45,300 nucleotides of DNA from an uncultured Chloroflexota bacterium (GTDB taxonomy: Bacteria; Chloroflexota; Dehalococcoidia; Dehalococcoidales; RBG-16-60-22): assembly GCA_903915565.1 (NCBI GenBank), contig CAIWTG010000221.1, forward strand, positions 1 to 45,300, written 5' to 3'. Both the position numbers and the translations under genes were made by a program. Below, one piece after another: positions 1 through 27,269 of this stretch. How positions within the stretch are numbered: position 1 is the first letter of the stretch; every line of letters begins with the position of its first letter. Under the pieces are notes generated by a model. The model saw only the letters and a program-made list of their open reading frames with translations, was not told the origin of the DNA and made no database searches.

Positions 1-67
1 GGCTCCTTGGAGACAAAATTTTATGCACGCGGCTCCATTGCCTTGGGAATTTTTATTTGGCAGCGGC

Positions 68-95
68 TTGATGTAGACATAAAAAACGATATAAT
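68..95 (+). promoter_or_regulatory. Candidate sigma70-type promoter upstream of speH
   Basis: TTGATG (68-73), 16-nt spacer, TATAAT (90-95), about 75 nt upstream of the speH start. Sequence pattern only. Confidence 0.35.
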
Positions 96-170
96 ATTTT
101 AAGAAAGTTGACGCGGTAACCCGTGCCGCTTTTCATAAACGGGAATAATTCTTTAAAGGGGGGCAGGTGA

Positions 171-527
171 TTGAATGCGTTGGGAAGACACATATTGGTA
201 GAGCTGCATGACTGTGACCGGGAGGCTCTAAACGACCTGGACCTCATCCGCGAGGTAATGCTGAAAGCCGCCGTTGACTGCGGGGCGGTGGTATTGGGGG
301 AATCCTTCCACCGGTTCAGCCCGCAGGGAGTGAGCGGGGTGGTGGTCATCGCCGAGAGCCACATCTCCATCCATACCTGGCCGGAGTACGGCTACGCAGC
401 GGCGGACGTTTTTACCTGCGGCACGACCGTGAATCCCGAGATTGCGGCGCAGGTGCTCATCGAAAAGCTGGGGTCCAAGAATCACACAATAACCGAAATA
501 AAGAGGGGGATTCTCGTAACAGTATAG
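171..527 (+). CDS. speH: S-adenosylmethionine decarboxylase proenzyme (small pyruvoyl-dependent type)
   Basis: 118-aa ORF with a TTG start. It has the self-cleavage/pyruvoyl context VVVIAESHISIHTWPE and a later FTCG. Spermidine synthase follows 13 nt downstream. Confidence 0.9.
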   Translation: MNALGRHILVELHDCDREALNDLDLIREVMLKAAVDCGAVVLGESFHRFSPQGVSGVVVIAESHISIHTWPEYGYAAADVFTCGTTVNPEIAAQVLIEKLGSKNHTITEIKRGILVTV

Positions 528-540
528 AATACTGATATTT

Positions 541-1461
541 ATGGATACAGACCCAGATAGATGGTTCCAAGATAAAATAAACGAAGATTTCTTACAGCTG
601 CACCGTATCGACGAGGTGGTTTATCAGGGACGAACGAGGTTCCAAAACGCCCGGGTAATCCGCAGCCCCAGACTGGGCATCTGCCTGATCCTCGATAACA
701 AGATACAGTCCAGCGAGCGGGACGAATTTATCTATCACGAGGGGCTGGTCCAGCCGGCCATGCTGGCGCACCCCAAACCGGAAAGAATATTTATCGCCGG
801 AGGGGGCGAAGGAGCAACCCTGCGCGAAGTCCTCCGCCACAAAACCGTTAAAACAGTGGAGATGGTGGACATTGACGATGTCGTCACCACCCTATCTAAA
901 AAATATCTCCCCGGCCATGCCGGCAAATCATTTGAAGATAAGCGCACCGCGGTTTTCCACGTTGACGCACGCAAGTATTTAGAAGACTCAAAAAGCAAAT
1001 TTGATGTTATCATTTTAGATTTACCCGACCCCATTGAAGAGGGTCCGGCCGCCATGCTTTTCACCGAGGAATTTTATAAGACCGTCCGCAACCACCTTTC
1101 TAGTGAAGGATTAGTTACCGTCCAGGCAGGGTCGGCCAACCCCACCGAGCTTTTAAACTTCAGCGCGGTAAACGGCACGCTTAAAAAAGTTTTCCCAATC
1201 GTCGTGCAGTGCGCCGCCTATGTGCCCTGCTTCGGGGGGCCGTGGGGCTTTTGCGTGGCATCGTTAAAATACAATCCCGCCCTGCTGACGCCGGAAGAAG
1301 TGGATACGCGCATTAAGGCGAGAGGCTTAAAGGGTTTAAAGTTTTACGACGGCGAGACCCACCGCAATATGTTCGCCCTGCCCAAGTATATCCGCGAGGC
1401 CATCACGGCGCAAAAAAGAATCATCACCGATAAAAAGCCGCTATTTTTGTACAAGAACTAG
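541..1461 (+). CDS. speE: Spermidine synthase / polyamine aminopropyltransferase
   Basis: 306 aa. SAM/dcSAM-binding motifs IFIAGGGEGATLREVLRH, VEMVDID and VIILDLPDP. Adjacent to speH. Confidence 0.9.
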   Translation: MDTDPDRWFQDKINEDFLQLHRIDEVVYQGRTRFQNARVIRSPRLGICLILDNKIQSSERDEFIYHEGLVQPAMLAHPKPERIFIAGGGEGATLREVLRHKTVKTVEMVDIDDVVTTLSKKYLPGHAGKSFEDKRTAVFHVDARKYLEDSKSKFDVIILDLPDPIEEGPAAMLFTEEFYKTVRNHLSSEGLVTVQAGSANPTELLNFSAVNGTLKKVFPIVVQCAAYVPCFGGPWGFCVASLKYNPALLTPEEVDTRIKARGLKGLKFYDGETHRNMFALPKYIREAITAQKRIITDKKPLFLYKN

Positions 1462-1524
1462 TTAATCAGTTCAGCTTTTGTTCCATGTTACTATTGTGAG
1501 CCAAGGATAAGTGTTTTATTTTTT

Positions 1525-2274
1525 ATGCAAAACACCAGAGAAATAGAGTTCGAAGGCATACTGAATTTCCGCGACCTGGGGGGATACCAGACGCGAGGAA
1601 ACCGCCATATTGCCTGGCGGCGACTATTCCGTAGCGGCGAACTCCACTGTATGACCGAGGGAGACGTTACTAAACTCAAACAAGAGCTTAAAATTAAAAC
1701 AATCATTGATATGCGAGGGGCAAAGATAATTGAAGGGCTGGGGGTGGGGCTGGTTAAGGAAACAGAAGCGCAGTATTATAACGTGCCCATGACAATAATA
1801 ATAGACCCCAACATGGAAAAAAGGCCAACCCCTAAATTCAATAATCTGCATGAGAATTACTTAGCTCGGGTGAAGAATGATGGATATGGTAAAAGCTTCA
1901 TCGAGGTGTTAAAAATAATCGCCGACCCGGCCAATCATCCTGCAATATTCCATTGTAACGCCGGTGCGGACAGATCCGGCATAATGTCGGCCATCATCCT
2001 TGATATTTTAGGAGTATCGGATAAAGACATTAGAGCGGATTATGGACTAACGGTACACCACCTACCGAAATTTATGGAGCGGTGGAACAACGATGTGAGA
2101 ACAGCAGAAGTGCATAGAAACCTCCCGGAATATCAGCAAGAACTCCATCCGGAAACGATTACGGCATTGTTGGCAACTCTCCGGGTTGAATACGGCTCGG
2201 TGATGGGGTATCTAGAATCGTTCGGGGCGGAAAAGGCTTTGTTTACCCAGCTGGAAAAAGCGCTGCTGGTTTAA
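1525..2274 (+). CDS. Protein-tyrosine phosphatase-like protein (CX5R family)
   Basis: 249 aa with the PTP-loop signature HCNAGADRSG (C-x5-R-S). Confidence 0.75.
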   Translation: MQNTREIEFEGILNFRDLGGYQTRGNRHIAWRRLFRSGELHCMTEGDVTKLKQELKIKTIIDMRGAKIIEGLGVGLVKETEAQYYNVPMTIIIDPNMEKRPTPKFNNLHENYLARVKNDGYGKSFIEVLKIIADPANHPAIFHCNAGADRSGIMSAIILDILGVSDKDIRADYGLTVHHLPKFMERWNNDVRTAEVHRNLPEYQQELHPETITALLATLRVEYGSVMGYLESFGAEKALFTQLEKALLV

Positions 2275-2297
2275 CAACGTCACGTTTGCATAAACAA

Positions 2298-2340
2298 ACA
2301 GGCTGGCAAGAGATAAATCTCACCAGCCTGTAATTATTTC
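2298..2340. terminator. Bidirectional rho-independent terminator between convergent genes
   Basis: Perfect 9-bp stem ACAGGCTGG (2298-2306) / CCAGCCTGT (2323-2331) with T-rich flanks on both strands. It lies between the stop codons at 2274 (+) and 2355 (-). Confidence 0.5.
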
Positions 2341-2354
2341 AGCTAAACGGGTGC

Positions 2355-2657
2355 TTAGTTGCCGCTAGCCCGGTTTTTATTGAAACAATCGCTGCAGTAA
2401 ACCGGTCTGCCTTCACGGGGCTCAAAAGGAACTTCGGTGTCTTTGCCGCATCCAGCGCAAACAGCAGGGTACATCTGGCGGGGTCTCCCACCGCCTCCGC
2501 CACCCATACGTTCGGCTTTCCTGTTTTGCCGGCAAGTGGGGCAACGCTTGGGTTCATTGGTATAGCCCTTGGACTGGAAGAACTCCTGCTCGGCGGCAGT
2601 GAAGGTGAATGAAGCTCCACAATCGGCACATGTAAGTTGTTTATCTTCGAACGCCAC
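2355..2657 (-). CDS. Double zinc-ribbon protein (two CxxC...CxxC modules joined by a poly-Gly linker)
   Basis: 100 aa with a GTG start preceded by AGGAGG. Module 1 is CADC...CPTC, then GGGGGG, then module 2 CAGC...CSDC. Confidence 0.7.
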   Translation of the reverse strand: MAFEDKQLTCADCGASFTFTAAEQEFFQSKGYTNEPKRCPTCRQNRKAERMGGGGGGRPRQMYPAVCAGCGKDTEVPFEPREGRPVYCSDCFNKNRASGN

Positions 2658-2702
2658 GGATGACCTCCTTTCTTAAGTTAGTTGGTTAGAGCTAGGTCAT
2701 CC
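2658..2702 (-). promoter_or_regulatory. Leader hairpin able to occlude the Shine-Dalgarno of the zinc-ribbon gene
   Basis: GGATGACCT (2658-2666) is the exact reverse complement of AGGTCATCC (2694-2702). In the minus-strand mRNA the downstream arm overlaps the AGGAGGT SD directly before the GTG start. Confidence 0.35.
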
Positions 2703-2869
2703 GTAACCATGTCGAGATTAGGTAAAGTTGATTGCATCCGATATCCTAGACTGAAAACCACTAGTCGCTATTATATACCGAACGTGTATGTTTGGCAATA
2801 GGTTGGAAAAAAGAATTTTTAGCTAAGACCGGGCAGTCCGGTAGGCTATTTTGAGGTTAATTTCAGGTA

Positions 2870-2897
2870 TTGACTAATCCATTTTTTGCTATATACT
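2870..2897 (+). promoter_or_regulatory. Candidate promoter of the heliorhodopsin-DegV unit
   Basis: TTGACT (2870-2875), 16-nt spacer, TATACT (2892-2897). A strong AAGGAGG SD at 2927-2933 lies 6 nt before the ATG at 2940. Confidence 0.4.
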
Positions 2898-2939
2898 ATG
2901 AGGTTAAGGAGGGCAAAATAGTTAATAAGGAGGATTGAG

Positions 2940-3707
2940 ATGACTAGCGACCAACAAACCGAACGGAAATTGCACGTCCTTAGAGTCTGGAATATCGTGG
3001 TCGGTCTTATTCTCGCGGTCCAGGCTGTATTGATGGCGGTCCTTACCAACAAATTTTCCCTGCCGGTAACCGCTACGTTTATGGAAGGCCCACCCGGCAG
3101 TTCTTCGAACCTGCACCACCTCTGGGATATACAAACCGGCTGGGGGGTTTTTACCTTCATGGCGATATCGGCCCTAGCCTTACTGCTGATTGCTTCTCCC
3201 TGGGTCTTTCCGTGGTATAAGCGGAACTTGTTACAGAACCGCAACTACGGGCGCTGGATAGAGTATTTCTTTAGCTCTTCAATCATGATAGTGCTCATCG
3301 CTCAGATAACCGGCATCAGCGACATTGCCGCTTTGCTGGGCATCTTCGGCGTCAACGCCTGTATGATACTCTTTGGAGCCTTGCAGGAAAAATATGAGAA
3401 ACCGGGCAAGCCGAACTGGATGCCTTTCTGGTTCGGGAGCTTTGCCGGCATCATCCCCTGGCTAGCAATAGTGATTTACGTTATCGCTCCGGGTGTCAAT
3501 ACATCCCCGCCGGGATTCGTCTATGCCATCATCGTTTCACTTTTTGTCTTCTTCAACTGCTTTGCCGTTAACATGGTCTTGCAGTATAAGAAAATCGGCC
3601 CCTGGAAAGACTACCTTTACGGTGAAAAAGTATACATCATCTTGAGCTTGACGGCTAAATCACTGCTTGCCTGGCTAGTATTCGCCAACATACTGGTTTT
3701 AAAGTAA
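2940..3707 (+). CDS. Heliorhodopsin (7-TM retinal-binding protein with inverted topology)
   Basis: 255 aa with seven hydrophobic segments. Near-colinear match to my recollection of heliorhodopsin 48C12: LPVTATFMEGPPG, GRWIEYFFSSSIMIVLIAQITGISDIAALLGIFGVNACMILFGALQEKY, WFGSFAGIIPWLAIVIYVIAPG, PGFVYAIIVSLFVFFN, YIILSLTAKSLLAW. Schiff-base Lys240 (AAA 3657-3659) sits in TM7 within S-x3-K. The counterion is Glu108 in RWxEY. A basic N-terminus (TERKLHVLR) precedes TM1, consistent with N-in. Confidence 0.9.
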   Translation: MTSDQQTERKLHVLRVWNIVVGLILAVQAVLMAVLTNKFSLPVTATFMEGPPGSSSNLHHLWDIQTGWGVFTFMAISALALLLIASPWVFPWYKRNLLQNRNYGRWIEYFFSSSIMIVLIAQITGISDIAALLGIFGVNACMILFGALQEKYEKPGKPNWMPFWFGSFAGIIPWLAIVIYVIAPGVNTSPPGFVYAIIVSLFVFFNCFAVNMVLQYKKIGPWKDYLYGEKVYIILSLTAKSLLAWLVFANILVLK

Positions 3708-3732
3708 AAAAACGTTTATCCAAGAGGGGAAT

Positions 3733-4578
3733 ATGATGACCATTCAGGTGATAACCGACAGCACATCTGATATCTCGCCGGAAATCTCCAAAGAACTGGG
3801 CATCAGGGTGGTGCCGATATACGTGCGCTTCGGCGACCAGCTTTTCCGCGATGGCGTGGACATCCAGAGCGACGAGCTTTACCGGATGCTAACAGCCTCG
3901 ATGCGGTGGCACCCGGCCACCTCACAACCGACGCCGGATGACTTTAAAGCGGTATACAAGGAATACAGTAAAAAATGCGACGGAATTATCTCGATACATA
4001 TATCGTCAAAGATAAGCGGCACGTGTAATTCGGCGAATATGGCCAAAGACATGGTTGGCGGTAAATGCCCCATCGAAGTAATTGACTCGAAGTTCAATTC
4101 TGGCGGCTTGGCGCTAATCGTAATGCATGCCGCCAAATTGGCAAAGTCGGCTAAAAACATCGCCAAACTTGCCGACGACGTCCGCGAATGCATCAGTCAC
4201 GTGAGTATGTTCGGCTATTTCGACACGATGAAGTACCTCGCCCTCGGCGGGCGGCTGCCCAAGATGATAGCGGCGGCGGCTAATTTTATAAATGTTAAAC
4301 CCTTGCTGACCTTCCGCGATGGCGAAATTACCCGGGCTGGACTGGTGCGTAGCTTTACACGGGGCGCGGAGAAGCTTTTTGATTTTGTGAAGAGTAAACA
4401 AAATATCGCAGATATGGTCATCGTTCACAGCGATATTGCCGAGCAAGCGGAAAAATTCCGTCAGAGTCTGGGTGAATTCTTCCCGGCCAATAAGATAAAT
4501 ATCTTAAAACTCGGCGCCGGACTGGGCGTGCACGGCGGGCTGGGCGTATTGCTGGTGGCATTAAGAGAAAACGCATAA
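3733..4578 (+). CDS. DegV family fatty-acid-binding protein
   Basis: 281 aa. The typical DegV N-terminus is IQVITDSTSDISPEISKELGIRVVPIYVRFGDQLFRDGVDI. SD AGAGGGGA lies upstream. The gene starts 25 nt after the heliorhodopsin stop. Confidence 0.9.
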   Translation: MMTIQVITDSTSDISPEISKELGIRVVPIYVRFGDQLFRDGVDIQSDELYRMLTASMRWHPATSQPTPDDFKAVYKEYSKKCDGIISIHISSKISGTCNSANMAKDMVGGKCPIEVIDSKFNSGGLALIVMHAAKLAKSAKNIAKLADDVRECISHVSMFGYFDTMKYLALGGRLPKMIAAAANFINVKPLLTFRDGEITRAGLVRSFTRGAEKLFDFVKSKQNIADMVIVHSDIAEQAEKFRQSLGEFFPANKINILKLGAGLGVHGGLGVLLVALRENA

Positions 4579-4582
4579 ACGA

Positions 4583-5119
4583 CTAGGCATTGAATAAAGC
4601 CGGCCAGATGAACATATCCATGACCGCCGTCTGCAGGCTGAATGCCGCGGCGCCGCCGATCGCCAACCAGTAAGCGATGTCCGCTCCTCTGGGACTAGTG
4701 ACAATAATTGCCCAGAGCAGCGCCAGCGAACCGATGCCGACCAGAGCCAGCACTAAACGGACGCTAACCCAACCTATGGTAGTCGGGTTATTCAGATAGG
4801 CAAAGGTCAGCGGCATCCATAACGCGGACGAGATAAGTATTACCAGGAAAATCACGTAGTACAGCCAAAAGCCAAACCGTCCGACGATTTGGACCTGGTC
4901 GGGGTTGAGTTGGAAAAACAGCCAGTAGCTGAAGGCAAAGAAACCCAGTGCCGCCAACAGCATGGTGACATAGTTAAGAATGCGCAGTCCGCCGGTAACG
5001 CCGCCCCACAGCGTTGCCGCCCCGCCCGGGTGAGTGGCAAAACCCTGAATATAGCTGCCGATTACCGCGGCGCCGCCTACTGCCATGATAGCGAGCAATA
5101 TCCATTGTTGCGTATGCAT
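4583..5119 (-). CDS. Integral membrane protein of unknown function (about 5-6 TM)
   Basis: Hydrophobic ORF. The track starts it at a TTG (5140). I prefer the ATG at 5117-5119 (MHTQQW...), which lies 10 nt downstream of a GGGAGG SD (5130-5135). The ATG at 5128 is only 1 nt from the SD. Confidence 0.6.
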   Translation of the reverse strand: MHTQQWILLAIMAVGGAAVIGSYIQGFATHPGGAATLWGGVTGGLRILNYVTMLLAALGFFAFSYWLFFQLNPDQVQIVGRFGFWLYYVIFLVILISSALWMPLTFAYLNNPTTIGWVSVRLVLALVGIGSLALLWAIIVTSPRGADIAYWLAIGGAAAFSLQTAVMDMFIWPALFNA

Positions 5120-5229
5120 TTTACTCATACCTCCCGCCAAATTTGCCTGGTTGAAGTATAATTATAATAGCACCTAAATCAGTTAATATCTATGGCAATC
5201 ATCTCACTCTCCTAATAGATAAGTCGGTT

Positions 5230-5258
5230 TTGACATGCGCCAGAACAGAATTTATACT
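5230..5258 (+). promoter_or_regulatory. Candidate promoter of the isochorismatase/GalT-like pair
   Basis: TTGACA (5230-5235), 17-nt spacer, TATACT (5253-5258), 48 nt upstream of the ATG at 5306. Confidence 0.4.
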
Positions 5259-5305
5259 TAAAAGGTTGGCTTTTCTCAAATTCCAGATTAAAGAGGTAAG
5301 AGATT

Positions 5306-5860
5306 ATGAACGTGCCCAAAGCGCTTGATGCCGCCAATACCGTCTTATTATTGATTGATTTTCAGGAGCGGCTTTTCCCCGTGATGCATGATAAAGAAAA
5401 ACTCCTGCAAAATGTTGTTAAACTCACTAAAGGCGCCAGGGTACTGGAGATACCAGTTATCCTGACCGAGCAATACCCCAAGGGTCTGGGGCCGACTATC
5501 CCGGAGATTAAAGAGCTTATCCCCGAGGTTAAACCAGTGGAAAAGGTCTGCTTTAGCTGCACGGACGAACCGGCATTCAACCAGGCGTTAAAATCGCTAA
5601 AGCGCAAACAGGTTCTCATCGCGGGCATAGAATCGCACATCTGCGTCTACCAGACGGCGATGGCGCTGGCACAGGAGGGTTACGAAGTACAGGTAGTCGC
5701 CGATGGCTGCGCTTCCCGCGACCCGGAAAATAAACTGGTGGCATTCACCAGATTCAGGCTGGCGGGCATTCCCCCCACCACCACCGAGATGGCGCTGTTC
5801 GAGTTACTTAAAGTGGCACAGGGTGACAAATTTAAGCAGATAAGCGGTATCGTAAAATAA
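5306..5860 (+). CDS. Isochorismatase-family cysteine hydrolase
   Basis: 184 aa. Motifs LLLIDFQ, LTEQYPKGLG and IAGIESHICVYQTA (catalytic Cys context). Confidence 0.85.
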   Translation: MNVPKALDAANTVLLLIDFQERLFPVMHDKEKLLQNVVKLTKGARVLEIPVILTEQYPKGLGPTIPEIKELIPEVKPVEKVCFSCTDEPAFNQALKSLKRKQVLIAGIESHICVYQTAMALAQEGYEVQVVADGCASRDPENKLVAFTRFRLAGIPPTTTEMALFELLKVAQGDKFKQISGIVK

Positions 5861-6939
5861 TGGTAACTCAAAATCCGTTTTCTAAATATATGAAACATAA
5901 AAAGAAAAGCACTATTGAGTTCCGGCGTGAGGTGCTGTCTTCAAAAATTATGACCCGCAATGGCTCCGGTATCTTTAAAGAGGCGGCCATACCCCTGGAG
6001 TTCCGCACCGACCCGTTGACCGGGCGCACCTGCCGCATCGTGCAGTACTCGACGGAAAGAATCACCCGCCCCAGTCTGACGGCATTGGAAAAGAAATCCA
6101 AAAAGGTCACCTGCCCTTTCTGCAAGCCGCAGATTGACAAGATTACGCCCCGCTTTCCGGCCGACCTTGTCCCGGATGGGATAATCCGCCGGGGCAAAGC
6201 CGTCGCCTTCCCGAACCTGGGCCCTTATGATGTTTACGGGGTGGTCGTGGCAATCTCCGACCGGCACTTTACCCCGCTCAAGGAGTTCGACGCCGAGACG
6301 ATTCAAAACGCCCTGCTGGCGGCGCAGGATTATATTAAAAGCGTCCAGGAATTCGACTCCCGGGCGATTTATCACTTCATCGCCTGGAACCACATGCCCC
6401 CTTCCGGCGGCAGCCTCATCCACCCGCACCTGCAGAGCAACGCCGGCTACTTCCCTACCGACTACCAGGCACAAATCCTCCAGGCTTCCGAAAGATACTA
6501 CCAGGAAAATCAGGCCAACTATTGGAGCGACCTGCTGCAGGCGGAGAAAGAGGGACCGCGGTACATCGGGCAGATAGGGCACACCGAGTGGATGACCAGC
6601 TTTGTGCCCAAGGGGCGGCTATCGGACGTGGTGGCGGTTTTCCCGGGTAAAGCTTCGATTGCCGAGCTAAGCAAACTGGATTTAGAAGAGTTCGCCCAGG
6701 GACTGCTCAAGGTCTTTGGTTATATTGACGGGCTAAACCTCATCAGCTTTAATATGAGCACTTATTCCGGCTTCGATAAAGACCGGTTTTGGGCGCACGC
6801 CCGCATCACCCCGCGGGGTATGCTTCTCTATTCGCCCATAGAAACCAGCGACCAGTTCTACTACCAGATAATGCAGGATGAGAATATCTGCATCCTCCCG
6901 CCCGAAACCGTCGCCCAAGAATTACGGAAGCGGTTTTAA
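5860..6939 (+). CDS. GalT-like HIT-superfamily nucleotidyltransferase/phosphorylase
   Basis: 359 aa. Zinc knuckle CPFC and active-site SGGSLIHPHLQ (HxHxQ). The start overlaps the upstream stop (TAATG). Confidence 0.7.
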   Translation: MVTQNPFSKYMKHKKKSTIEFRREVLSSKIMTRNGSGIFKEAAIPLEFRTDPLTGRTCRIVQYSTERITRPSLTALEKKSKKVTCPFCKPQIDKITPRFPADLVPDGIIRRGKAVAFPNLGPYDVYGVVVAISDRHFTPLKEFDAETIQNALLAAQDYIKSVQEFDSRAIYHFIAWNHMPPSGGSLIHPHLQSNAGYFPTDYQAQILQASERYYQENQANYWSDLLQAEKEGPRYIGQIGHTEWMTSFVPKGRLSDVVAVFPGKASIAELSKLDLEEFAQGLLKVFGYIDGLNLISFNMSTYSGFDKDRFWAHARITPRGMLLYSPIETSDQFYYQIMQDENICILPPETVAQELRKRF

Positions 6940-6960
6940 ATTGTTAGGATTAAATTAGTC

Positions 6961-7884
6961 ATGCTAAAAAAAATAGCGGTGATAATATGTACCTTGACGC
7001 TGGCAGCGATTTTACTATCCTCCTGCCTCCCGGCCCCGCATACTCCATTAACAGGCTTTAAGCCGGGAGATTATAACGAGTCGCTGGACTCCGGAAACCG
7101 GACGCGTACTTACACTGTCCATATTCCACTCACTTACAATACCGATCAGGCAATGCCTTTGGTCGTCGTTCTGCATGGGTCGGGCGGCTCCGCTGATAAT
7201 ATCGCCGAGACAACCGACATGAGCGATAAAGCCGACGCAGCCGGCTTCATCGTTGTTTACCCCAACGGCACAGGTTTGCTCAATGATACGCTTTATTTGA
7301 CATGGAACTGCGGTTTCTGCTGCGGCTATGCATCGGATAACAACATTGATGACGTGGGTTTTATGCGGTCGCTCATTGGAAAGCTGGAAGGGGAACTGAA
7401 TATAGATAAGGCGCGTATCTTTATTACCGGTTTTTCCAATGGCGCCATGTTGGCCTACCGGCTTGGCTGCGAGCTATCGGATATCGTCGCCGCCATTGCG
7501 CCGGTGTCCGGCTCGATGGGCGATTGGGAAACGGCTTCATCAAGCCCGGTGTCGGTTATCATCTTCCACGGTACGGCTGATGCCATCGTGCCATATGAGG
7601 GAGGTACATCAGACGAGCTTGCTACGGAGGGAAGGATAGATAAACCCGTGTCTTACGCCGTAAATTTCTGGGTGACTCATAACGGCTGCTCGACGGCATA
7701 TACCCGGGACGTAAACGGTGATATTGTAAGGGATAGTTATAGCGGCGGACGGGGCGGCTCGGAGGTAGTTCTTTATACCATCGTCGACGGTCAACACGCC
7801 TGGCCGGGCGACAACCCAGCCTACCGAGTAATATCCGCTACCGACCTTATCTGGGAATTCTTTGCCGCCCACCCCAAACTGTAG
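6961..7884 (+). CDS. Secreted lipoprotein esterase of the PHB-depolymerase / feruloyl-esterase (LpqC-like) family
   Basis: 307 aa. Signal peptide with lipobox LLSSC. VVVLHGSGGSA and the nucleophile elbow GFSNGAMLAYRL. Confidence 0.75.
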   Translation: MLKKIAVIICTLTLAAILLSSCLPAPHTPLTGFKPGDYNESLDSGNRTRTYTVHIPLTYNTDQAMPLVVVLHGSGGSADNIAETTDMSDKADAAGFIVVYPNGTGLLNDTLYLTWNCGFCCGYASDNNIDDVGFMRSLIGKLEGELNIDKARIFITGFSNGAMLAYRLGCELSDIVAAIAPVSGSMGDWETASSSPVSVIIFHGTADAIVPYEGGTSDELATEGRIDKPVSYAVNFWVTHNGCSTAYTRDVNGDIVRDSYSGGRGGSEVVLYTIVDGQHAWPGDNPAYRVISATDLIWEFFAAHPKL

Positions 7885-7898
7885 AAGGTCAGCAACAC

Positions 7899-8234
7899 AT
7901 GAAATCTGCAAAGCCCAAGGAAACAACCGCCATAGAGTGCCGGCGTTGCGGCGTCTGCTGCACCAGGCACCAGGCCTTCGTTACGCCAGAGGATGCCGAC
8001 AGAATAATCGCCTACGTGGGTATGACGCCGGCCGAGTGGGACGAAAAGTATGACGACCCGCGCTGGAAGTACTCGGAATGGCGTCTGATACGCCACATAA
8101 ACGGCGCCTGTGCCTTTCTAACGTTTAACGAGGGGTTAGCGACCTGCCGGATACACGCCGTCAAGCCTGCGTGCTGTGCCAAGTGGCAGGCCGGACTAGA
8201 CAAGACGGAGTGTAAAGAGGGGATGTTAACGTAA
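7899..8234 (+). CDS. YkgJ-family cysteine-cluster (Zn/Fe-binding) protein
   Basis: 111 aa with CRRCGVCC (CxxCxxCC) and further conserved Cys residues. Confidence 0.7.
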   Translation: MKSAKPKETTAIECRRCGVCCTRHQAFVTPEDADRIIAYVGMTPAEWDEKYDDPRWKYSEWRLIRHINGACAFLTFNEGLATCRIHAVKPACCAKWQAGLDKTECKEGMLT

Positions 8235-10226
8235 CGTAACCTTTCCCCTCACCCTTATATCCCTTGATGAACTCCCTACCAGTATTTCAAAGTCGCCGGG
8301 TTCTGCCACCCAATCCTTAGTCTTAACGTCGTAAAAAGACAGGGCGTCTTTGGTCAGCGTGAATTCAACCTTTTTCTTCTGTCCGGGTTTAAGGGCGACC
8401 TTGCTAAAGGCTTTCAGCTCTTTTGGCGGGCGCGGCACGCTGGCGGCAATATCGCTTACATAAACCTGCACCACCTCTTTGCCCGCCGCTTTACCCGTGT
8501 TCTTCACATCAACGCTCACATTAAACTTATCTTTCGTTTGCGCCGGGCTGACCTTAAGGTTGCTATATTCAAAGGTGGTGTAAGATAGCCCGTGCCCGAA
8601 GGAGAATAAAGGCTCAACGTTGTTAGCGTCGTAGTGGCGGTAGCCGACGAACATGCCCTCGCCATAGACAACCTTATCGTTCTCGCCGGGGTAATAGGGA
8701 AAGGCGGGGTTATCTTCATAACGGCGCGGGAAGGTATCGGGCAGCTTGCCGGAGGGATTCACCAGGCCAAAGATGATATTCGCTATAGCGTTGCCGCACT
8801 CCTGCCCGGGGAAAAGGGCATCCACCACAGCAGGGACGCTGTCAATCCAGGGCATATTCAATGGCGAACCATTGTTCATTATTACTACCGTTTTGGGATT
8901 GGCTTTAGCCACGCGGCTGACCAGTTCGTTCTGACCCGGCGGCAGGTTCATGTCCTTGCGGTCGACGCCTTCGGTCTCTATCTTCTCGTTGGTGCCCACA
9001 AAGACGAGAGCAACGTCGGCGCCGGCGGCGGCTTTAACCGCTTTCTCTAAAAGGTTAGCGGACGGCGCGTCGGCGCAGCCAGGTTCATATACTATTTGCA
9101 CTTTATCGCCACAGAATTTTTTCAGAGCCTCGAGCGGGGCGACCTTATAATAAGGCGTAACGTAGGCGCTGCCGCCTCCCTGAATGACGGCTGTTGCCGC
9201 GTTAGGGCCGATGACGGCGATGGTCTTTACTTTATTTTTGTCCAGCGACAGGAGGTTGTTATCATTTTTCAGCAGGACAATGGCTTCCTCGGCGACCTCG
9301 CGGGCAAGTTGGCCATGGGCGGGGAATTCCTTATTTTTATCGGCGTCGGTGATATTCTTATCCAGCGCGCCGGTTTTTATCATCACGCCTAAAACGCGGC
9401 GCACCTTATCGTCAATAATTTTTTCATCAACCGCGCCTTCTTTCACCGCTTTAACCAAAGCCTCGTTAAAAAAGCGTGCAGGCCCGGGCATCTCCAAATC
9501 CAGCCCGGCATTGGCGGCGGGGATTGTGCTATGGACGGCATACCAGTCGGACATGACCAGCCCCTCAAAGCCCCACTCATCTTTTAAAACCTCCATCAAA
9601 AGCCAGTGGTTCTCCGAGGCAAATGTGCCGTCAATCTTGTTATAAGAGCACATCACCGACCACGCTCCTGCTTCTTTAATGGCTTTTTCAAAAGACGGTA
9701 AGTAAATTTCCCGCCGGGTGCGCTCATCTACCTCCGAGCTGATGGTCATGCGCTGGTATTCGGAATCGTTGAGGGCGAAGTGCTTGACGCAGGCGCTCAC
9801 TTTTTGGCTCTGGATGCCTTTTATAATAGCCACGGTCATCTGTGACGACAGATACGGGTCTTCTGAATAGCTCTCAAAGTTCCTGCCGCCGAGGGGCGAA
9901 CGGTGGATGTTAATACAGGGGCCTAATAGGACGACGCAGCCCCGCGCCCGCGTCTCTTCCCCTAAAGCGACGCCGACCTTGTTAACCAGGTCGGGATTCC
10001 AGGTCGCCGCCAGACTAACCCCGGTGGGGAAACAGGTGGCGGGGATAGTGCGTTTGGGGTCGGCGTTATCCATCGTTCTGGCGCCATGAGGACCGTCGGT
10101 AACCTTAATCGCCGGTATGCCCAGCCGTTCGATGACGTGTGTATGCCAGAAATCAACGCCGGCTGTCAGAGCGACCTTTTCTTCCAGCGTCAATTGCTTC
10201 AGTAACGACTCAATTCTTTTATTCAT
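8226..10226 (-). CDS. Glycoside hydrolase family 3 beta-glucosidase
   Basis: 666 aa. GH3 motifs KHFALND and GLVMSDW (nucleophile Asp), plus a C-terminal FnIII-like domain. Confidence 0.9.
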   Translation of the reverse strand: MNKRIESLLKQLTLEEKVALTAGVDFWHTHVIERLGIPAIKVTDGPHGARTMDNADPKRTIPATCFPTGVSLAATWNPDLVNKVGVALGEETRARGCVVLLGPCINIHRSPLGGRNFESYSEDPYLSSQMTVAIIKGIQSQKVSACVKHFALNDSEYQRMTISSEVDERTRREIYLPSFEKAIKEAGAWSVMCSYNKIDGTFASENHWLLMEVLKDEWGFEGLVMSDWYAVHSTIPAANAGLDLEMPGPARFFNEALVKAVKEGAVDEKIIDDKVRRVLGVMIKTGALDKNITDADKNKEFPAHGQLAREVAEEAIVLLKNDNNLLSLDKNKVKTIAVIGPNAATAVIQGGGSAYVTPYYKVAPLEALKKFCGDKVQIVYEPGCADAPSANLLEKAVKAAAGADVALVFVGTNEKIETEGVDRKDMNLPPGQNELVSRVAKANPKTVVIMNNGSPLNMPWIDSVPAVVDALFPGQECGNAIANIIFGLVNPSGKLPDTFPRRYEDNPAFPYYPGENDKVVYGEGMFVGYRHYDANNVEPLFSFGHGLSYTTFEYSNLKVSPAQTKDKFNVSVDVKNTGKAAGKEVVQVYVSDIAASVPRPPKELKAFSKVALKPGQKKKVEFTLTKDALSFYDVKTKDWVAEPGDFEILVGSSSRDIRVRGKVTLR

Positions 10227-11752: not shown

Positions 11753-13846
11753 ATGGCGAAAATTAAGTTCGAGAAACTGCTCGAGCCGGGGTACATCGGC
11801 AAGGTCAAAACGCGGAACCGGATAGTGAAATCCGGCGCCGGGACGTTCATGTGGCACGAGGACGAAACGCGCATGAATAAAACCATCCTCGCCTATTATG
11901 AGAGTCTGGCGCGGGGCGGGGTGGGGTTATTGATAGTTGAAAGCCCGACCATTGACTATCCGGCCGGGGCGCGGTGGCGGCAGCGCTACCGCATTGACGA
12001 CGATAAATACATCAAAGGCTTGAGCGAGCTTCCTAAAATCATCCACAAATACGGCTGTCCCACCTTTATGCAAATGAACCACGATGGGCCGTGGGAGTCA
12101 CACCCGTTCCCCGACCCCAACCCTCCGTTCAATGGACCGCCGATAGCCGCCTCGTCCACGGTACTGAAAAACACCAATGATTTTCATAATGAGCTGCCGC
12201 ACGCGCTGACGATTTCCGAAATAGAGGTCATCATCGATAAATTCGCCAGCGCCGCCGTCAGGGCGAAAAAGGCCGGCTTTGACGGGGTGGACATCAACGC
12301 CGCCAGCAGCCATTTGCTGCATAACTTCCTCTCGCCTTTCTGGAACCACCGCAAGGACGCTTATGGCGGCAGCCCGGAAAACCGGGCGCGCTTTGTTACC
12401 AACATCATTAAAGAAATCAAAAAGCGATTGGGCCCGGACTTCCCTGTTTCCGTCTGCATCAACAGCATAGAAGTCGGGCAGACGGCGGACATCGCTGATG
12501 ATAGATGTATCACGGTGGAAGACGCGCGGCTGACGGCGCAGCTGTTAGAAGCCGCCGGCGCCGACATGATTCACGTGCGCAGCCACTGGCTGGGATACCA
12601 CGTGGGGGCTTATCTGCCTGACCTAATGTTTTATCCGAACTTCCCCGTCCCCGTAAAAGACATCCCCAAAGTTTACAACGCTCACCTGCGGGGTAAGGCG
12701 TGGAACGTTAACCTGGCGGCGGGGATTAAAGCAGCGGTAAAAATACCGGTGATGGTGGTGGGCAAACTCGACCCGGAACTGGGCGAAAAAGCCCTGGAAG
12801 AGGGCAAGGTGGACTTCATCGCCATGACGCGCCGCCTGCAGGCTGACCCGGAACTACCCAACAAAGTGGCGGCGGGGAGATTGGAAGATATTGCCCCCTG
12901 CACCGCCTGCGAGAACTGTCTGGGTTCGCGGCGTTGCCGTATTAATGCGTTCATGGGCAAGGAATACAACACGGTTGAAAAAGCGGCGAAAAAGAAAAAG
13001 GTCGCCGTTATTGGCGCCGGACCCGCCGGCATGGAAGCTGCTCGCGTGGCGGCTTTAAGGGGACACGACGTAACGCTTTACGACGGCAGCGGCAGCCTGG
13101 GGGGTCTTTTACCTCTGGCGGCCGTGGTCAAAGGCACGGAGCTGGAAGACTTGCCGGCGATAATTAAGTATTTTGAACGCCAACTAAAAAACCTCGGTGT
13201 TACGACGGAGCTGGGAAAAAAGGTAAATACCAAAACCATCGAAAGAACAAAACCGGACGCCGTCATTATCGCCACGGGCGGGATTCCTACGATGCCCAAT
13301 ATAAAAGGCATTGACGGGAAGAACGTAGTGGGCGGAGCTAAACTGCATAAGACCCTTAAGTTCTACCTGAAATTCATCCCGCCGAACCTTTTAAGGTGGC
13401 TGACCAAATTCTACCTCCCCATCGGTAAGCGGGTCGTTATCATCGGGGGGAGTTTGCACGGCTGCGAGCTGGGCGAATTTTTAGTCAGGCGTGGCCGGCA
13501 GGTAACCATCGTGGATAAATCAAAGCAATTGGGACAGGGCATGGTGGACGTTATTCAGGCCTACCTGTTCCAGTGGTTTAGTCACATGGGCGTGAGGCTC
13601 ATCAGCGGGATTGAGGACTATATTGAAATAACGCCGGATGGGCTGTTAATAAGAAATGAAAAGGGCGTTGCAGAAATGCTCCCCGCCGATACGATACTCC
13701 CCACCCTGCCGTTGACGCCGGATATGAAACTTTATGAGAGCCTCAAGGGCAAGGTTAAAGAAATCTACGCCATCGGCGACTGTAAAGAACCGCAACTTAT
13801 CGCCGACGCCGTCAGCCAGGGCATGGAAACCGCCCGCTCAATCTAA
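11753..13846 (+). CDS. Two-domain FMN/FAD oxidoreductase of the enoate reductase / 2,4-dienoyl-CoA reductase type (OYE barrel + Fe-S + FAD/NAD(P) domain)
   Basis: 697 aa. N-terminal OYE-like barrel, Cys cluster CTACENCLGSRRC, then dinucleotide folds VAVIGAGPAGMEAA and VVIIGGSLHGCELG. Confidence 0.85.
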   Translation: MAKIKFEKLLEPGYIGKVKTRNRIVKSGAGTFMWHEDETRMNKTILAYYESLARGGVGLLIVESPTIDYPAGARWRQRYRIDDDKYIKGLSELPKIIHKYGCPTFMQMNHDGPWESHPFPDPNPPFNGPPIAASSTVLKNTNDFHNELPHALTISEIEVIIDKFASAAVRAKKAGFDGVDINAASSHLLHNFLSPFWNHRKDAYGGSPENRARFVTNIIKEIKKRLGPDFPVSVCINSIEVGQTADIADDRCITVEDARLTAQLLEAAGADMIHVRSHWLGYHVGAYLPDLMFYPNFPVPVKDIPKVYNAHLRGKAWNVNLAAGIKAAVKIPVMVVGKLDPELGEKALEEGKVDFIAMTRRLQADPELPNKVAAGRLEDIAPCTACENCLGSRRCRINAFMGKEYNTVEKAAKKKKVAVIGAGPAGMEAARVAALRGHDVTLYDGSGSLGGLLPLAAVVKGTELEDLPAIIKYFERQLKNLGVTTELGKKVNTKTIERTKPDAVIIATGGIPTMPNIKGIDGKNVVGGAKLHKTLKFYLKFIPPNLLRWLTKFYLPIGKRVVIIGGSLHGCELGEFLVRRGRQVTIVDKSKQLGQGMVDVIQAYLFQWFSHMGVRLISGIEDYIEITPDGLLIRNEKGVAEMLPADTILPTLPLTPDMKLYESLKGKVKEIYAIGDCKEPQLIADAVSQGMETARSI

Positions 13847-13860
13847 AGGGAAGTGATTTT

Positions 13861-14325
13861 ATGCCAAAACAAAAATACGCTAAAAACATCCTCACGGAAG
13901 ACCGCATGCCGCCGCCACCCGAGCGCGATGTGAAGAGCATGGCAAAACAGGCCAAGGCGGGGCGGACGTTAGACCGGACGATGCTGCTGGGGATACAGGA
14001 CTCCATCGTTAAGGGAGCATTCTTTGCAGGGTGCGAGTGGCTGTGGCAGCTGACGGGTAACGGGCCGGTGGCAATTGAGACGCCGCACACGCACGACTTT
14101 GATGAAATCATCGGGTTTGCCGGCTCCAATCGGAATCACCCGCGGGAACTGGGCGGGGAAATCGAGTTCTGGATGGACGACGAGCCTTATACCCTCACCA
14201 AGACCTGCTTTATCTTCATCCCCCGGGGCGTCAAGCACTGCCCCGTCGTCCTTAAAAGAATCGACACGCCCATTTTCATGTTCGAGTCCGGCAACAATAC
14301 CGCTTACGAAAAGCTTAAAAAATAG
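13861..14325 (+). CDS. Cupin-fold protein, paralog 1 of 3
   Basis: 154 aa. Cupin motif 1 HTHDFDEIIGFAG and motif 2 IPRGVKHCP. The N-terminus MPKQKY resembles paralog 2. Confidence 0.7.
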   Translation: MPKQKYAKNILTEDRMPPPPERDVKSMAKQAKAGRTLDRTMLLGIQDSIVKGAFFAGCEWLWQLTGNGPVAIETPHTHDFDEIIGFAGSNRNHPRELGGEIEFWMDDEPYTLTKTCFIFIPRGVKHCPVVLKRIDTPIFMFESGNNTAYEKLKK

Positions 14326-14335: not shown

Positions 14336-14809
14336 ATGCCGAAGAAGGATTATAACAAGTATTTTGTCAGTAAGCCCGCCTACGAGGTCATCCCGGAGGG
14401 TGAAGTTAAGGGACGCCGTCCGGCGATGACCCTGATGTCTAATAACCTGGTGCCGAAAACCAATATGTACATCGAAACCGGCTGGGTGTTCGGCATGCCC
14501 GACCCCAACCCGCATATCTTTGAGCACACGCACGATTATGACGAAATCGTTATCCACATGGGCACCGACCCCGATAACCAGGAGGAGCTGGGCGGAGAAA
14601 TCGAGTTCATGGTGGGCGGCCAGCCGCTGAAAATCAATAAGACCTCGGCGGTGTATGTGCCCAAGGGCGTGCCGCACGGTCCGCTGACCTGGAAGAAATA
14701 TAACAAGCCCCACCTGGAGCTGACGATTATGATAGGCGCCGGTTCTTTGGCCCAGGCCGACCCGGGCGGGCACGAAAAAAGCCGCAAGAATAAAAAGGAG
14801 GAGAAATAA
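14336..14809 (+). CDS. Cupin-fold protein, paralog 2 of 3
   Basis: The track ORF 14075..14809 overlaps paralog 1 in another frame. The ATG at 14336 (MPKKDYNKYF) follows a TAGGAG SD. Motifs HTHDYDEIVIHMG and VPKGVPHGP. Confidence 0.7.
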   Translation: MPKKDYNKYFVSKPAYEVIPEGEVKGRRPAMTLMSNNLVPKTNMYIETGWVFGMPDPNPHIFEHTHDYDEIVIHMGTDPDNQEELGGEIEFMVGGQPLKINKTSAVYVPKGVPHGPLTWKKYNKPHLELTIMIGAGSLAQADPGGHEKSRKNKKEEK

Positions 14810-15255
14810 TGGATAAGATAGACAGGAAATTCTTTGTCACCGAGCTTAATGACGTGGTGGGGGACGCTCCGTGGTCGCCGGTGTTTGCGGACAATGAAGG
14901 GCAGCGCGTTCTTTCCCTCGACGGGGACGTCATCAAGGGGGCTTTCTATATGGAAACGGCGTGGTTCCTGCCGGGCGATTGGCCGAAGAAAACCGGCTCG
15001 CTGAAGGACCGCACCATCGGGGAGCACGTCCACGACTTTGACGAGGTTCTCGCCTGGATAGGGTCGAACCCTAAAGACAAGTACAATCTCAACGGGGAAG
15101 TCGAGCTCTGGATAGACGGCAAACAAAACATCCTGACGAAGAGCTTTTTGGCGTTTATCCCGGCGGGCACCAAGCACGGCCCGATTAACATTAGAAAGAT
15201 AAAGAAGCCGATGTTCCACTTTACCGCCGGCATGGGGAAGAAGTATAGTAAGTAG
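14809..15255 (+). CDS. Cupin-fold protein, paralog 3 of 3
   Basis: 148 aa. The start overlaps the upstream stop (TAATG). Motifs HVHDFDEVLAWIG and IPAGTKHGP. Confidence 0.7.
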   Translation: MDKIDRKFFVTELNDVVGDAPWSPVFADNEGQRVLSLDGDVIKGAFYMETAWFLPGDWPKKTGSLKDRTIGEHVHDFDEVLAWIGSNPKDKYNLNGEVELWIDGKQNILTKSFLAFIPAGTKHGPINIRKIKKPMFHFTAGMGKKYSK

Positions 15256-15282: not shown

Positions 15283-16743
15283 ATGTCTGTTGCCAAACTT
15301 AAGTTAGCCGCTTTATTTGCCCTGCTTCTCTTCATAGCGGCAATTGCTATCCCCACCCCCGCTTTTGCCGACGGCGGGCCGATTGTCCCTGCCGACCTCT
15401 GGGATAACCTTAAAGAGGGGCACCAAATAGCCGTGGTTTCTTTAATAAGTCAGGACGAGGCGGTGGTCGACCTTTTCATTTCTATCCAGGACAAAACAAC
15501 GGAGTCCCACGAAGTCATCTTTTTCGTGCCTATAGGTAAAGACGCAACCTTCCACAGCGCTTATGAGCAGAACCTGTCCGACTTCAATGAATTCAATACC
15601 GCGGGGCTGGACCAGATAATCCGAGCCAGTGTAACCACCCGGCAGCATGCCGTCCAGGCGCTTTTCGCCGGGGCGTTACTGACTAACGGTGCGATATTAT
15701 CCCCACTCTGGGCCACGGTGCTGCTTACCGGATGCAGCTCTGGTGCCCAACAGCCGGAGGCCTCTTTCCAGACTGAAAGCTCCGAGATTAATATATTTGG
15801 TATTGATGATAACACGGATTTGAATGCGCTTATCGAGACTACCGGGCTGGCTCCCTCCGTTTATGATACGCTGTCCACACTCAAAGGGCAGCGGGTAGCC
15901 GTCGTCAAGCTGCATACCCAGCCTAAAGTACCTGAATCTGAAAACCCGGTATTCCAAAGCACTCCCACCTCCGAACCCGGGCTGCACCTCAACTGGACCA
16001 CTCCTCTCGTGGATAGTGCGTATACTTATCCCCTGGGAACCGGCGCCGCCTGGTCCAAACCTATCGATCTGACGCGGGTTTATATCAGCGTGCCTAAGGG
16101 CGTCGACTTTGATGTCCAATACCCCGCCCTCGGGACGGAGTATTCCGGCTACGACTATATCAAAGGTCCGAATATCCAAAACTACATCAATACCCCCGCT
16201 TACGCCATTGACGAGGCCAGCGGTGACTTCGGGCGGGTCTGGCGGGCGACATATACGATGAGCAATCCCACCGATAACATCGTCATTACGGTTAAACCGC
16301 AGTCGGCGTTAAGCCAATTCCTCGCCAGCGCCAAGGAGGGTGCGGTAACTTACTCCGTGCTCTTCGCCCTGATTATCGGGGTGTTAATATGGGTTCTCGC
16401 CTGGAAATACCTGATGCCCATTTTCCTCGGCATTAAAGAGAAGCATCCCATGTTAGCCTGGTATTATGCGTTGATTTATCCCGGTTGTAACTTAATCTTT
16501 ATCATCTTCCCGGGAATGGTGTTTTATTTGTTCTTCCTGTTTAATGCGACCCTCATATCATTTATTCTGCTTTTCGTGGTGCTGGGAGGGGCGATAATCG
16601 GTATATTTTCTTTGGCACACGGCGGCCGTCTGGGCGTCAGCCGGGGCAAAGCGATAGGCGCTTTTGTGCTAACTAGTCTTTGCAGCAACGCGGTTTACCT
16701 GCTACTGGCGGCTGGCTTTGCCTGGTTCGTGGGCGCTATCTAG
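15283..16743 (+). CDS. Secreted, membrane-anchored protein of unknown function
   Basis: 486 aa. N-terminal signal peptide (...PTPAFA/DGG), a soluble region of about 330 aa, then about 4-5 C-terminal TM helices. It is the last gene of the plus-strand operon. Confidence 0.65.
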   Translation: MSVAKLKLAALFALLLFIAAIAIPTPAFADGGPIVPADLWDNLKEGHQIAVVSLISQDEAVVDLFISIQDKTTESHEVIFFVPIGKDATFHSAYEQNLSDFNEFNTAGLDQIIRASVTTRQHAVQALFAGALLTNGAILSPLWATVLLTGCSSGAQQPEASFQTESSEINIFGIDDNTDLNALIETTGLAPSVYDTLSTLKGQRVAVVKLHTQPKVPESENPVFQSTPTSEPGLHLNWTTPLVDSAYTYPLGTGAAWSKPIDLTRVYISVPKGVDFDVQYPALGTEYSGYDYIKGPNIQNYINTPAYAIDEASGDFGRVWRATYTMSNPTDNIVITVKPQSALSQFLASAKEGAVTYSVLFALIIGVLIWVLAWKYLMPIFLGIKEKHPMLAWYYALIYPGCNLIFIIFPGMVFYLFFLFNATLISFILLFVVLGGAIIGIFSLAHGGRLGVSRGKAIGAFVLTSLCSNAVYLLLAAGFAWFVGAI

Positions 16744-21483: not shown

Positions 21484-21587
21484 AATTTATTACTCCTGTT
21501 TTTATTTATAGGCTAAATACACACTCTATTATGCCCTAAATGCAAAATTCCTGCATCCGCTAAAATACTGAATGAGTTTACGGTTCA

Positions 21588-21626
21588 CAGCTATCAGTTT
21601 TGGGGAGGGGGGAGTACTGATAACTG
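21588..21626 (-). other. Intercistronic hairpin between MT1 paralog 5 and MT2
   Basis: CAGCTATCAGT (21588-21598) pairs with ACTGATAACTG (21616-21626). 11 bp with one mismatch and a G-rich (plus-strand) loop. Confidence 0.4.
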
Positions 21627-21649
21627 TTTACTGTATACTGAAAACTCAA

Positions 21650-22990: not shown

Positions 22991-23006
22991 TTTGAGCCTC
23001 CGCTAA

Positions 23007-24341: not shown

Positions 24342-24379
24342 TTTGGTTATGCCTCCGTAACTAATTCCTTAAGTGTTTC

Positions 24380-24475
24380 GTCATTGCGAGGAGCGAAGCG
24401 ACGCGGCAATCCCAATCTACGTTTACTCCAATGCTTGAGATTGCCACGCCCTACTGCGGAAGGGCTCGCAATGAC
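24380..24475. repeat. REP/MITE-like palindromic element in the paralog 3 / paralog 4 spacer
   Basis: The terminal inverted repeats GTCATTGCGAG (24380-24390) and CTCGCAATGAC (24465-24475) are exact complements. The inner arms GGCAATC / GATTGCC also pair. Confidence 0.6.
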
Positions 24476-24481
24476 ACCTCG

Positions 24482-25828: not shown

Positions 25829-25890
25829 GATTGATTACCCTCCTTTTGTTATTCCAAGGTCGGGTGTTGGGGTGACATTATCAATTTCAT

Positions 25891-25908
25891 TAGCCAAATG
25901 CTTGGCTA
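25891..25908 (-). other. Small hairpin directly after the paralog 2 stop
   Basis: TAGCCAA (25891-25897) / TTGGCTA (25902-25908) with a 4-nt loop. Confidence 0.35.
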
Positions 25909-25911
25909 TAT

Positions 25912-27237: not shown

Positions 27238-27269
27238 CCTGAACCTCCAAAAAAGCTATTTCTAACCGA

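Follow-up and report, generated by a model that had tools for sequence, protein, structure and literature searches.

A 45,300-nt stretch of DNA from an uncultured Chloroflexota bacterium of the Dehalococcoidales (GenBank assembly GCA_903915565.1, contig CAIWTG010000221.1, positions 1 to 45,300; the whole stretch is referred to as the window) carries close to its start a gene for a 255-amino-acid (aa) protein that is, with near certainty, a genuine heliorhodopsin (HeR). Both histidines of the Schiff-base cavity are replaced by leucine in this protein. Its gene is followed on the same strand by one for a DegV-family fatty-acid-binding protein, and a convergent gene beyond that encodes a 178-aa membrane protein. 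The reading favoured with good confidence is that of a functional HeR acting as a non-pumping light sensor, with the DegV protein and the 178-aa protein as its candidate partners. The new element at this locus is the family of the 178-aa protein, as a candidate third member of a HeR–DegV module.

Identification of the heliorhodopsin gene

A preliminary description of the window, made from its letters and open reading frames (ORFs), had reported a 255-aa ORF at 2940–3707 on the forward strand, and this was found exactly as claimed, with RWIEYFFSSS at residues 105–114, SLTAK at residues 236–240 and Lys240 encoded by AAA at 3657–3659. The same description had assigned the product to the heliorhodopsins and not to the type-1 rhodopsins. 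Full-length hidden Markov model matches far above both cutoffs bore this out: the Pfam Heliorhodopsin model PF18761 scored 326.3 bits (cutoff 26.7; E=1.3e-97; model positions 1–242 of 242), and the NCBIfam equivalog NF038020, 'heliorhodopsin HeR', scored 321.8 bits (cutoff 100). Family searches returned nothing besides heliorhodopsin even at E≤1, and no type-1 rhodopsin family or structure was found at E≤1 in Pfam or the PDB. The best structural matches were to the actinobacterial reference 48C12 (6SU3, 6UH3 and 9LJJ; E=1.9e-72), with weaker matches to TaHeR (6IS6; E=1e-52) and to 9VFC (2e-35).

Identity to 48C12 was 49 % over 247 aligned residues. The type-1 motifs RYxDW in transmembrane helix (TM) 3 and DxxxK in TM7 are absent; RWIEY (R105-W106-I107-E108-Y109) and SLTAK (S236-x3-K240) stand there instead, with Ser where type-1 pumps carry Asp. 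Lys240 aligned with the Schiff-base Lys241 of 48C12 in both phmmer and MAFFT alignments, and Glu108, which had been named as the counterion, aligned with Glu107 of 48C12. One earlier statement was too strong: the 38-aa core at residues 115–152, described as almost identical to that of 48C12, shares 31 of its 38 residues (82 %), against 49 % for the whole protein.

The protein is homologous to 48C12 along every one of the seven helices in the solved structure. When helix boundaries were taken over from 48C12, the positive-inside count for an N-in orientation gave 11 Lys and Arg residues inside vs two outside. These data support a predicted architecture of seven TM helices in inverted topology with a cytoplasmic N-terminus. 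The N-in orientation of the preliminary description is upheld by this count, but the basic N-terminus given as its ground is not, the first 13 residues being net neutral (two K/R, two D/E).

The gene is preceded by a strong Shine-Dalgarno sequence and by a promoter-like site (Table 1); the latter is a pattern match alone and its function is putative. Several ORFs that overlap the gene, three antisense (2846–3244, 2922–3134 and 3302–3454) and one out of frame on the same strand (3493–3645), were rejected as spurious given the homology of the HeR frame.

A histidine-less subtype

Alignment with 48C12 and 75 relatives (MAFFT) revealed a property that the preliminary description had passed over: Leu25 and Leu81 of the window HeR replace His23 and His80 of 48C12. 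Further substitutions relative to 48C12 are S109F, W146A and Q213M. The two histidine positions covary strictly, with 56 Leu/Leu, 20 His/His and no mixed sequences among 76 (the window and the 75 relatives), and every sequence at least 64 % identical to the window HeR is Leu/Leu. The Leu/Leu proteins stem from Dehalococcoidia, Thermoleophilia and some other Actinomycetota. Across all 76 sequences, at 53–93 % identity, there is no variation at the functional Lys, Glu and Ser or at about 20 further key positions. The polar cavity residues N18, N102, R105, Y109 and E229 are kept in the window HeR.

His23 and His80 line a water-filled Schiff-base cavity in 48C12. The cavity histidines are highly conserved across heliorhodopsins and important in proton transfer (Kovalev et al.), and His80 has been proposed as the Schiff-base proton acceptor, from which the relay runs to His23, Gln26 and Trp246 (Tsujimura et al., PMC9726877). 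The window HeR does not have this family-conserved pair, which is highly conserved but not obligatory. Loss of both histidines leaves membership of the family intact, because the characterized heliorhodopsin HULAa30F3 shares the Leu/Leu state.

HULAa30F3 was isolated from a Dehalococcoidia fosmid from the peat Lake Ha'Hula (Chazan et al., bioRxiv 10.1101/2021.02.16.431466; later Environ Microbiol 2022), and its 'H25 and H81' are described as replaced by leucine. When expressed and supplied with retinal, it formed a pigment that peaked at 562 nm and accumulated little M, much as the TaHeR H23F/H82F mutant does, and a DegV gene adjoins it (Chazan et al.). The same study found that a Dehalococcoidia HeR was expressed in Escherichia coli from its native signals. 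HULAa30F3 (GenBank MW122873–MW122884) was compared here by its published description, with the Chloroflexi HeRs of Dataset S2 of Chazan et al. as sequence stand-ins. That dataset contains Leu/Leu HeRs with an identical RWIEYFFSSS motif in complete Chloroflexi genomes, and one Chloroflexi HeR from it, APV44794.1, is 75 % identical to the window HeR.

Judged by its Leu/Leu state, 48C12-like sequence and Dehalococcoidia origin, the window HeR is assigned to the HULAa30F3-type histidine-less group A. This subtype is already known and characterized, and the window HeR is a largely ordinary member of it. By analogy with HULAa30F3, a maximum of about 562 nm with low M would be expected, and not the generic 48C12-like photocycle with a maximum near 550 nm that had been anticipated.

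The DegV gene and the variability of HeR neighbourhoods

The DegV gene starts 25 nt past the HeR stop codon, on the same strand and with its own ribosome-binding site, and a terminator scan of the 25-nt gap found no terminator-like site. Because of this operon-like spacing without a terminator-like site, the two genes are probably co-transcribed. Assignment to the DegV family was corroborated by TIGR00762 (266.8 bits; cutoff 99.7) and by PDB matches to DegV and FakB structures (E from 1.8e-36, for 2dt8, to 1e-21). The score against the FakB1 equivalog model, 120.9 bits, was under its cutoff of 350.

The genomic context had been presented in the preliminary description as new and informative, but DegV directly downstream is the leading HeR neighbour association already in print, and the context is not new in this respect. 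HeR–DegV is the strongest published neighbour association of heliorhodopsins, found across thousands of genomes, and it prompted a membrane-lipid-remodelling hypothesis (Chazan et al.).

HeR neighbourhoods were compared in 80 genome loci with related HeRs, which are numbered with the prefix L. They were highly variable, and no universal neighbour was present across the 80 loci. Recurrent neighbours, each in at most 11 of the 80, were a response regulator, a histidine kinase, an ABC ATPase, DJ-1/PfpI, MFS and SOUL proteins, and small membrane proteins or lipoproteins. Among these loci, an intact DegV gene lay directly downstream of the HeR gene on the same strand in L001, L010, L017, L021 and L037; beyond them, it did so in L084. 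In L029 only a DegV fragment was found downstream, and in L027, L031 and L056 DegV was near the HeR gene on the opposite strand.

Two further explanations of the neighbourhood were considered and rejected. Recent acquisition of the HeR–DegV segment was not supported, as no compositional anomaly was seen over positions 1–9000 and GC content was unremarkable across the locus; in L004 the space between the HeR gene and the conserved isochorismatase promoter is just filled by another insert, which is shorter. A tie between the change from His to Leu and the DegV and membrane-protein neighbours was also dismissed. Among the genome loci, all 12 linked HeRs are Leu/Leu, and none of the 20 His/His HeRs is linked, but this split follows phylogeny, and a Leu/Leu-specific link is also contradicted by three distant His/His HeRs beside the membrane protein.

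A family of 178-aa membrane proteins

The gene that converges on DegV encodes a 178-aa protein. Its mechanical ORF reaches a TTG at 5140; relatives and gene callers begin at the ATG at 5119. No match was obtained in Pfam, even at E≤10, or in NCBIfam, and PDB sequences searched with a profile of the family gave no match. An identity with DUF2177 or DUF1295 (presumably PF09945 and PF06966) was rejected on the same Pfam and NCBIfam results, and 40 distant members of the family likewise matched neither at E≤0.1 and shared no consistent match to any Pfam model. The protein has 719 homologues, none with an annotated domain, and an exhaustive profile search returned 677 representative clusters, nearly all of about 175–180 aa. 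Members of the family are also present in the loci L081–L168. Ser22, Tyr23, Trp38, Ser98, Trp101, Pro103, Arg121, Thr164, Asp168 and Trp172 are invariant in the family. An AlphaFold2 model (pLDDT 92, pTM 0.88) predicted five long helices and one short helix, and a Foldseek search of this model against the PDB found no solved relative (best E about 1, TM-score below 0.45).

Linkage was assessed in a sample of 80 independent metagenome loci seeded on the 178-aa family, 27 of which were evaluable, with at least 1.9 kb on both sides. DegV directly adjoined the 178-aa gene in 13 of these 27 loci, a HeR gene lay within 1.1 kb in seven, and both were present in six. At least eight different arrangements by gene order and orientation were represented. 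HeR and the 178-aa protein were found together without DegV in L005, L054, L101, L133, L144 and L162. In three loci (L091, L158 and L162) the HeRs adjoining members of the 178-aa family were of the His/His type and 41–44 % identical to the window HeR. The link is not specific to Leu/Leu HeRs, because these three linked HeRs are distant His/His types. The recurrent adjacency of the three genes despite rearrangement, in counts that ignore kinship, suggests a functional relationship. Earlier neighbour surveys would have missed the 178-aa protein because it belongs to no named family.

Table 1. Positions in the window of the heliorhodopsin (HeR) gene, its signals and key codons, and neighbouring genes
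Feature	Position	Strand	Remarks
Double CxxC treble-clef zinc-finger protein (zf_Tbcl + zf_Tbcl_2), 100 aa	2355..2657	-	Divergent from HeR; Pfam
Promoter-like TTGACT-16 nt-TATACT	2870..2897	+	About 43 nt 5' of the HeR start codon; consensus scan, 10/12
Shine-Dalgarno AAGGAGGA	2927..2934	+	Strong; 5 nt ahead of the HeR ATG; read from sequence
Heliorhodopsin (HeR) gene, 255 aa	2940..3707	+	ATG start; group A / subfamily 1, histidine-less (Leu/Leu) subtype
Leu25 codon	3012..3014	+	48C12 His23 position; MAFFT alignment with 48C12 and 75 relatives
Leu81 codon	3180..3182	+	48C12 His80 position; MAFFT alignment
Glu108 codon, predicted Schiff-base counterion (48C12 Glu107)	3261..3263	+	Invariant in 76/76 relatives
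S-L-T-A-K motif, Ser236 (48C12 Ser237) to Lys240 (Schiff-base Lys241)	3645..3659	+	Both residues invariant in 76/76
DegV-family fatty-acid-binding protein, 281 aa	3733..4578	+	Pfam DegV PF02645, 238 bits
178-aa membrane protein, five predicted TM helices	4583..5119	-	Convergent with DegV; 4 nt between stop codons

Proposed function and alternative explanations

In the window HeR, Lys240 would form the Schiff base with all-trans-retinal, and Glu108 would serve as the counterion. By analogy with HULAa30F3 it is expected to absorb yellow-green light near 560 nm, and by comparison with characterized relatives to have a slow photocycle in which the O state is long-lived and little M builds up, and to pump no ions. 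On sensing light it would probably modulate a partner protein's activity through direct contact, a form of regulation shown for other HeRs with glutamine synthetase, photolyase and the OmrDE ABC transporter. The most likely partners would be the probably co-transcribed DegV protein and/or the adjacent 178-aa membrane protein, and together they may form a light-responsive module for handling membrane lipid. Coupling of the HeR to either or both is put at somewhat under an even chance. The fuller proposal, that the 178-aa protein is the membrane member of a three-part light-responsive lipid-handling module with HeR and DegV, is tentative and on balance doubtful: the HeR would sense light and, through contact in the membrane, would control a 178-aa protein that passes fatty acids or lipid to or from soluble DegV.

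Several observations weigh against this reading. DegV or the 178-aa protein was found within 6 kb of only 12 of the 56 Leu/Leu HeRs (the window included) and of none of the 20 His/His HeRs. The otherwise syntenic loci L003 and L004 keep HeR and isochorismatase without DegV and the membrane protein, and the pair of DegV and 178-aa genes occurs without HeR in L081–83 and L086–88. In the window itself the 178-aa gene is convergent and not co-transcribed, and no gene for a FakA-type/Dak2 kinase or for retinal synthesis was found within the window. The bins that hold relatives of the HeR come from peat, sediment and groundwater, where light is limited. Coupling among HeR, DegV and the 178-aa protein is at best facultative.

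In one alternative, the real partner of the HeR is encoded elsewhere, or is no neighbour product at all, and DegV and the 178-aa gene are an incidental mobile two-gene cassette. This alternative has to be taken seriously while being judged unlikely. The high variability of the 80 neighbourhoods (two-component systems, ABC ATPase, DJ-1/PfpI, MFS and SOUL) fits it, as do the HeRs of L003 and L004 without the cassette, the cassettes without HeR and the unrelated partners used by other HeRs. However, the adjacency recurs in many orders and orientations and extends to HeRs of 41–44 % identity, which is hard to obtain through inherited synteny. The 25-nt same-strand spacing of HeR and DegV suggests co-transcription, and an independent large-scale study ranks DegV as the most characteristic HeR neighbour (Chazan et al.). 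A light-dependent enzyme was also considered, in which the substrate of the HeR would be a lipid or small molecule lodged in the cytoplasmic cavity or lateral fenestration, and DegV would bring or remove the fatty acid. Kovalev et al. and Chazan et al. have put forward this hypothesis, monoolein and alkanes are seen bound in HeR crystal structures, at the fenestration close to the retinal ring (Chazan et al.), and the remaining polar cavity residues listed above are conserved. It is nevertheless improbable here: no HeR is known to be catalytically active, the functions that have been demonstrated are regulatory, and a cavity without both histidines is less polar and a less plausible active site.

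The other two alternatives concern the HeR alone. A relic opsin without function, left in an anaerobe that lives in the dark and cannot make retinal, would agree with the absence of blh and carotenoid genes from the 45-kb window, with the anaerobic metabolism that the rest of the window seems to encode and with relatives from peat, sediment and groundwater. It is very improbable in view of the intact reading frame, the invariance over the 76 relatives of the Lys, Glu and Ser and of about 20 further key positions, the thousands of full-length relatives, the pigment formed by the clade member HULAa30F3 with supplied retinal, and the fact that HeR genomes typically lack blh. Least credible is ion transport, by a proton-conducting HeR of the kind found in giant viruses or by a misclassified type-1 pump. 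Some viral HeRs do transport protons, but the window protein has HeR motifs in place of RYxDW and DxxxK, matches HeR models only and falls in the 48C12 group (49 % identity). In the original 2018 report, 48C12 reportedly showed no ion transport, which also counts against a transporter. The internal extracellular half of 48C12 has been described as completely hydrophobic (Kovalev et al.), and without His80 the internal proton path is incomplete (PMC9726877). A light-sensing HeR that regulates a partner protein is the explanation preferred here.

Relatives, host and other genes of the window

A family search with the HeR returned more than 7,800 relatives, the nearest 93 % identical and several named 'heliorhodopsin HeR' by NCBI. 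An identical protein in the same five-gene context was found in the ENA assemblies ERZ1426817 and ERZ1426815. The nearest HeR-bearing genomes are bins of Dehalococcoidales obtained in projects on peat, fen, soil, sediment and groundwater. Among the approximately 40 proteins scanned in the 45-kb window, no blh and no retinal- or carotenoid-synthesis gene was found. Retinal must come from elsewhere, because the window has no gene for its synthesis; blh is rare in HeR genomes, and its absence is typical (Chazan et al.).

Upstream of the HeR gene are genes for a spermidine synthase, a Y_phosphatase3 protein and the divergent zinc-finger protein, and downstream are DegV, the convergent membrane protein and an isochorismatase. 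The zinc-finger gene adjoins HeR in L001, L004 and L084, which are among the closest relatives only, and is about 4 kb away in L003. This neighbourhood is probably local synteny, no wider association having been seen. In L003 (6766–7127) and L004 (6766–7432), intervals are present where DegV and the membrane protein are absent, and the L004 insert differs, at about 670 nt. L004 and the window share a conserved promoter-like sequence of the isochorismatase gene, TTGACATGC...TTTATACTTAAAA. The isochorismatase stop codon is overlapped by 1 nt by a forward-strand gene (5860–6939) for a 359-aa protein without a significant Pfam match (best DUF4931_N, E=0.02), which is 85 % conserved in L001. In L086–L088, two genes without a Pfam match (495 and 664 aa; 334–3812, reverse strand) lie beside the HeR-less DegV/178-aa pair, and a multi-PAS hybrid histidine kinase lies on its other side.

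Elsewhere the window resembles the chromosome of an anaerobic member of the Dehalococcoidales. A corrinoid methyltransferase cluster on the reverse strand (20620–29369) contains five tandem URO-D paralogues of about 441–448 aa (21650–22990, 23007–24341, 24482–25828, 25912–27237 and 27350–28696), flanked by a B12-binding corrinoid protein (28686–29369) and a pterin-binding MtrH-like protein (20620–21483). Its gene content suggests an expanded cluster for corrinoid-dependent methyl transfer or O-demethylation. The window also encodes a 2-oxoacid:ferredoxin oxidoreductase of three subunits (POR_N/PFOR_II, TPP_enzyme_C and POR gamma; 37289–40262, reverse strand); next, on the forward strand, come genes for a MarR regulator and for two family III CoA-transferases in tandem (41029–43519). 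The oxidoreductase and CoA-transferase genes are consistent with an anaerobic lifestyle of the host. Two large ORFs had no Pfam match at E≤1e-4 (15283–16743, forward strand, 486 aa; 16796–18298, reverse strand, 500 aa); they adjoin two small cupin paralogues (13861–14325 and 14809–15255) and a 697-aa Oxidored_FMN/Pyr_redox_2 flavoenzyme (11753–13846).

Significance

The physiological role of heliorhodopsins is partly solved, with few partners known: glutamine synthetase, photolyase and an ABC transporter. DegV is the most widespread neighbour signal and is without experimental follow-up. The window brings no new kind of rhodopsin; it adds another clean HeR–DegV operon in the histidine-less subtype. 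The compact and well-folded 178-aa family, which lies outside Pfam, NCBIfam and the PDB, is a concrete third candidate for binding and lipid assays. Related HeRs are present in the complete Chloroflexi genomes CP011392.1 and CP018258.1, which we take to be those of cultured Dehalogenimonas strains, and this makes tests feasible in a real organism.

Comparison with known systems

The closest characterized counterpart is HULAa30F3, which like the window HeR belongs to group A, comes from Dehalococcoidia, has Leu at residues 25 and 81 and has DegV adjacent. The 178-aa membrane protein is not mentioned in the paper on HULAa30F3, where neighbours were analysed on the basis of named protein families. 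The reference 48C12 (PDB 6SU3/6SU4/6UH3) has the same length and helix layout as the window HeR, and the two have in common the Lys, Glu, Ser and Arg, Asn16/101, Glu149/230, Tyr226, Pro172 and Trp173. They differ by H23L and H80L and by the three further substitutions given above. TaHeR is a more distant relative, of archaeal group B, whose wild type retains both histidines; its engineered H23F/H82F mutant, with reduced M accumulation, is mimicked by the natural Leu/Leu state of the window HeR.

Regulatory HeRs with known partners resemble the window in their operon-like layout, with intergenic distances of −20 to 30 bp. Their partners are glutamine synthetase, photolyase and OmrDE, whereas the candidate partners in the window are DegV and/or the 178-aa protein. 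The published HeR–DegV–DUF2177–DUF1295 neighbourhood, found mostly in Chloroflexi and Firmicutes (Chazan et al.), likewise combines a HeR, DegV and a small membrane protein. Its membrane proteins are DUF2177 and DUF1295, whereas that of the window is by sequence neither of them.

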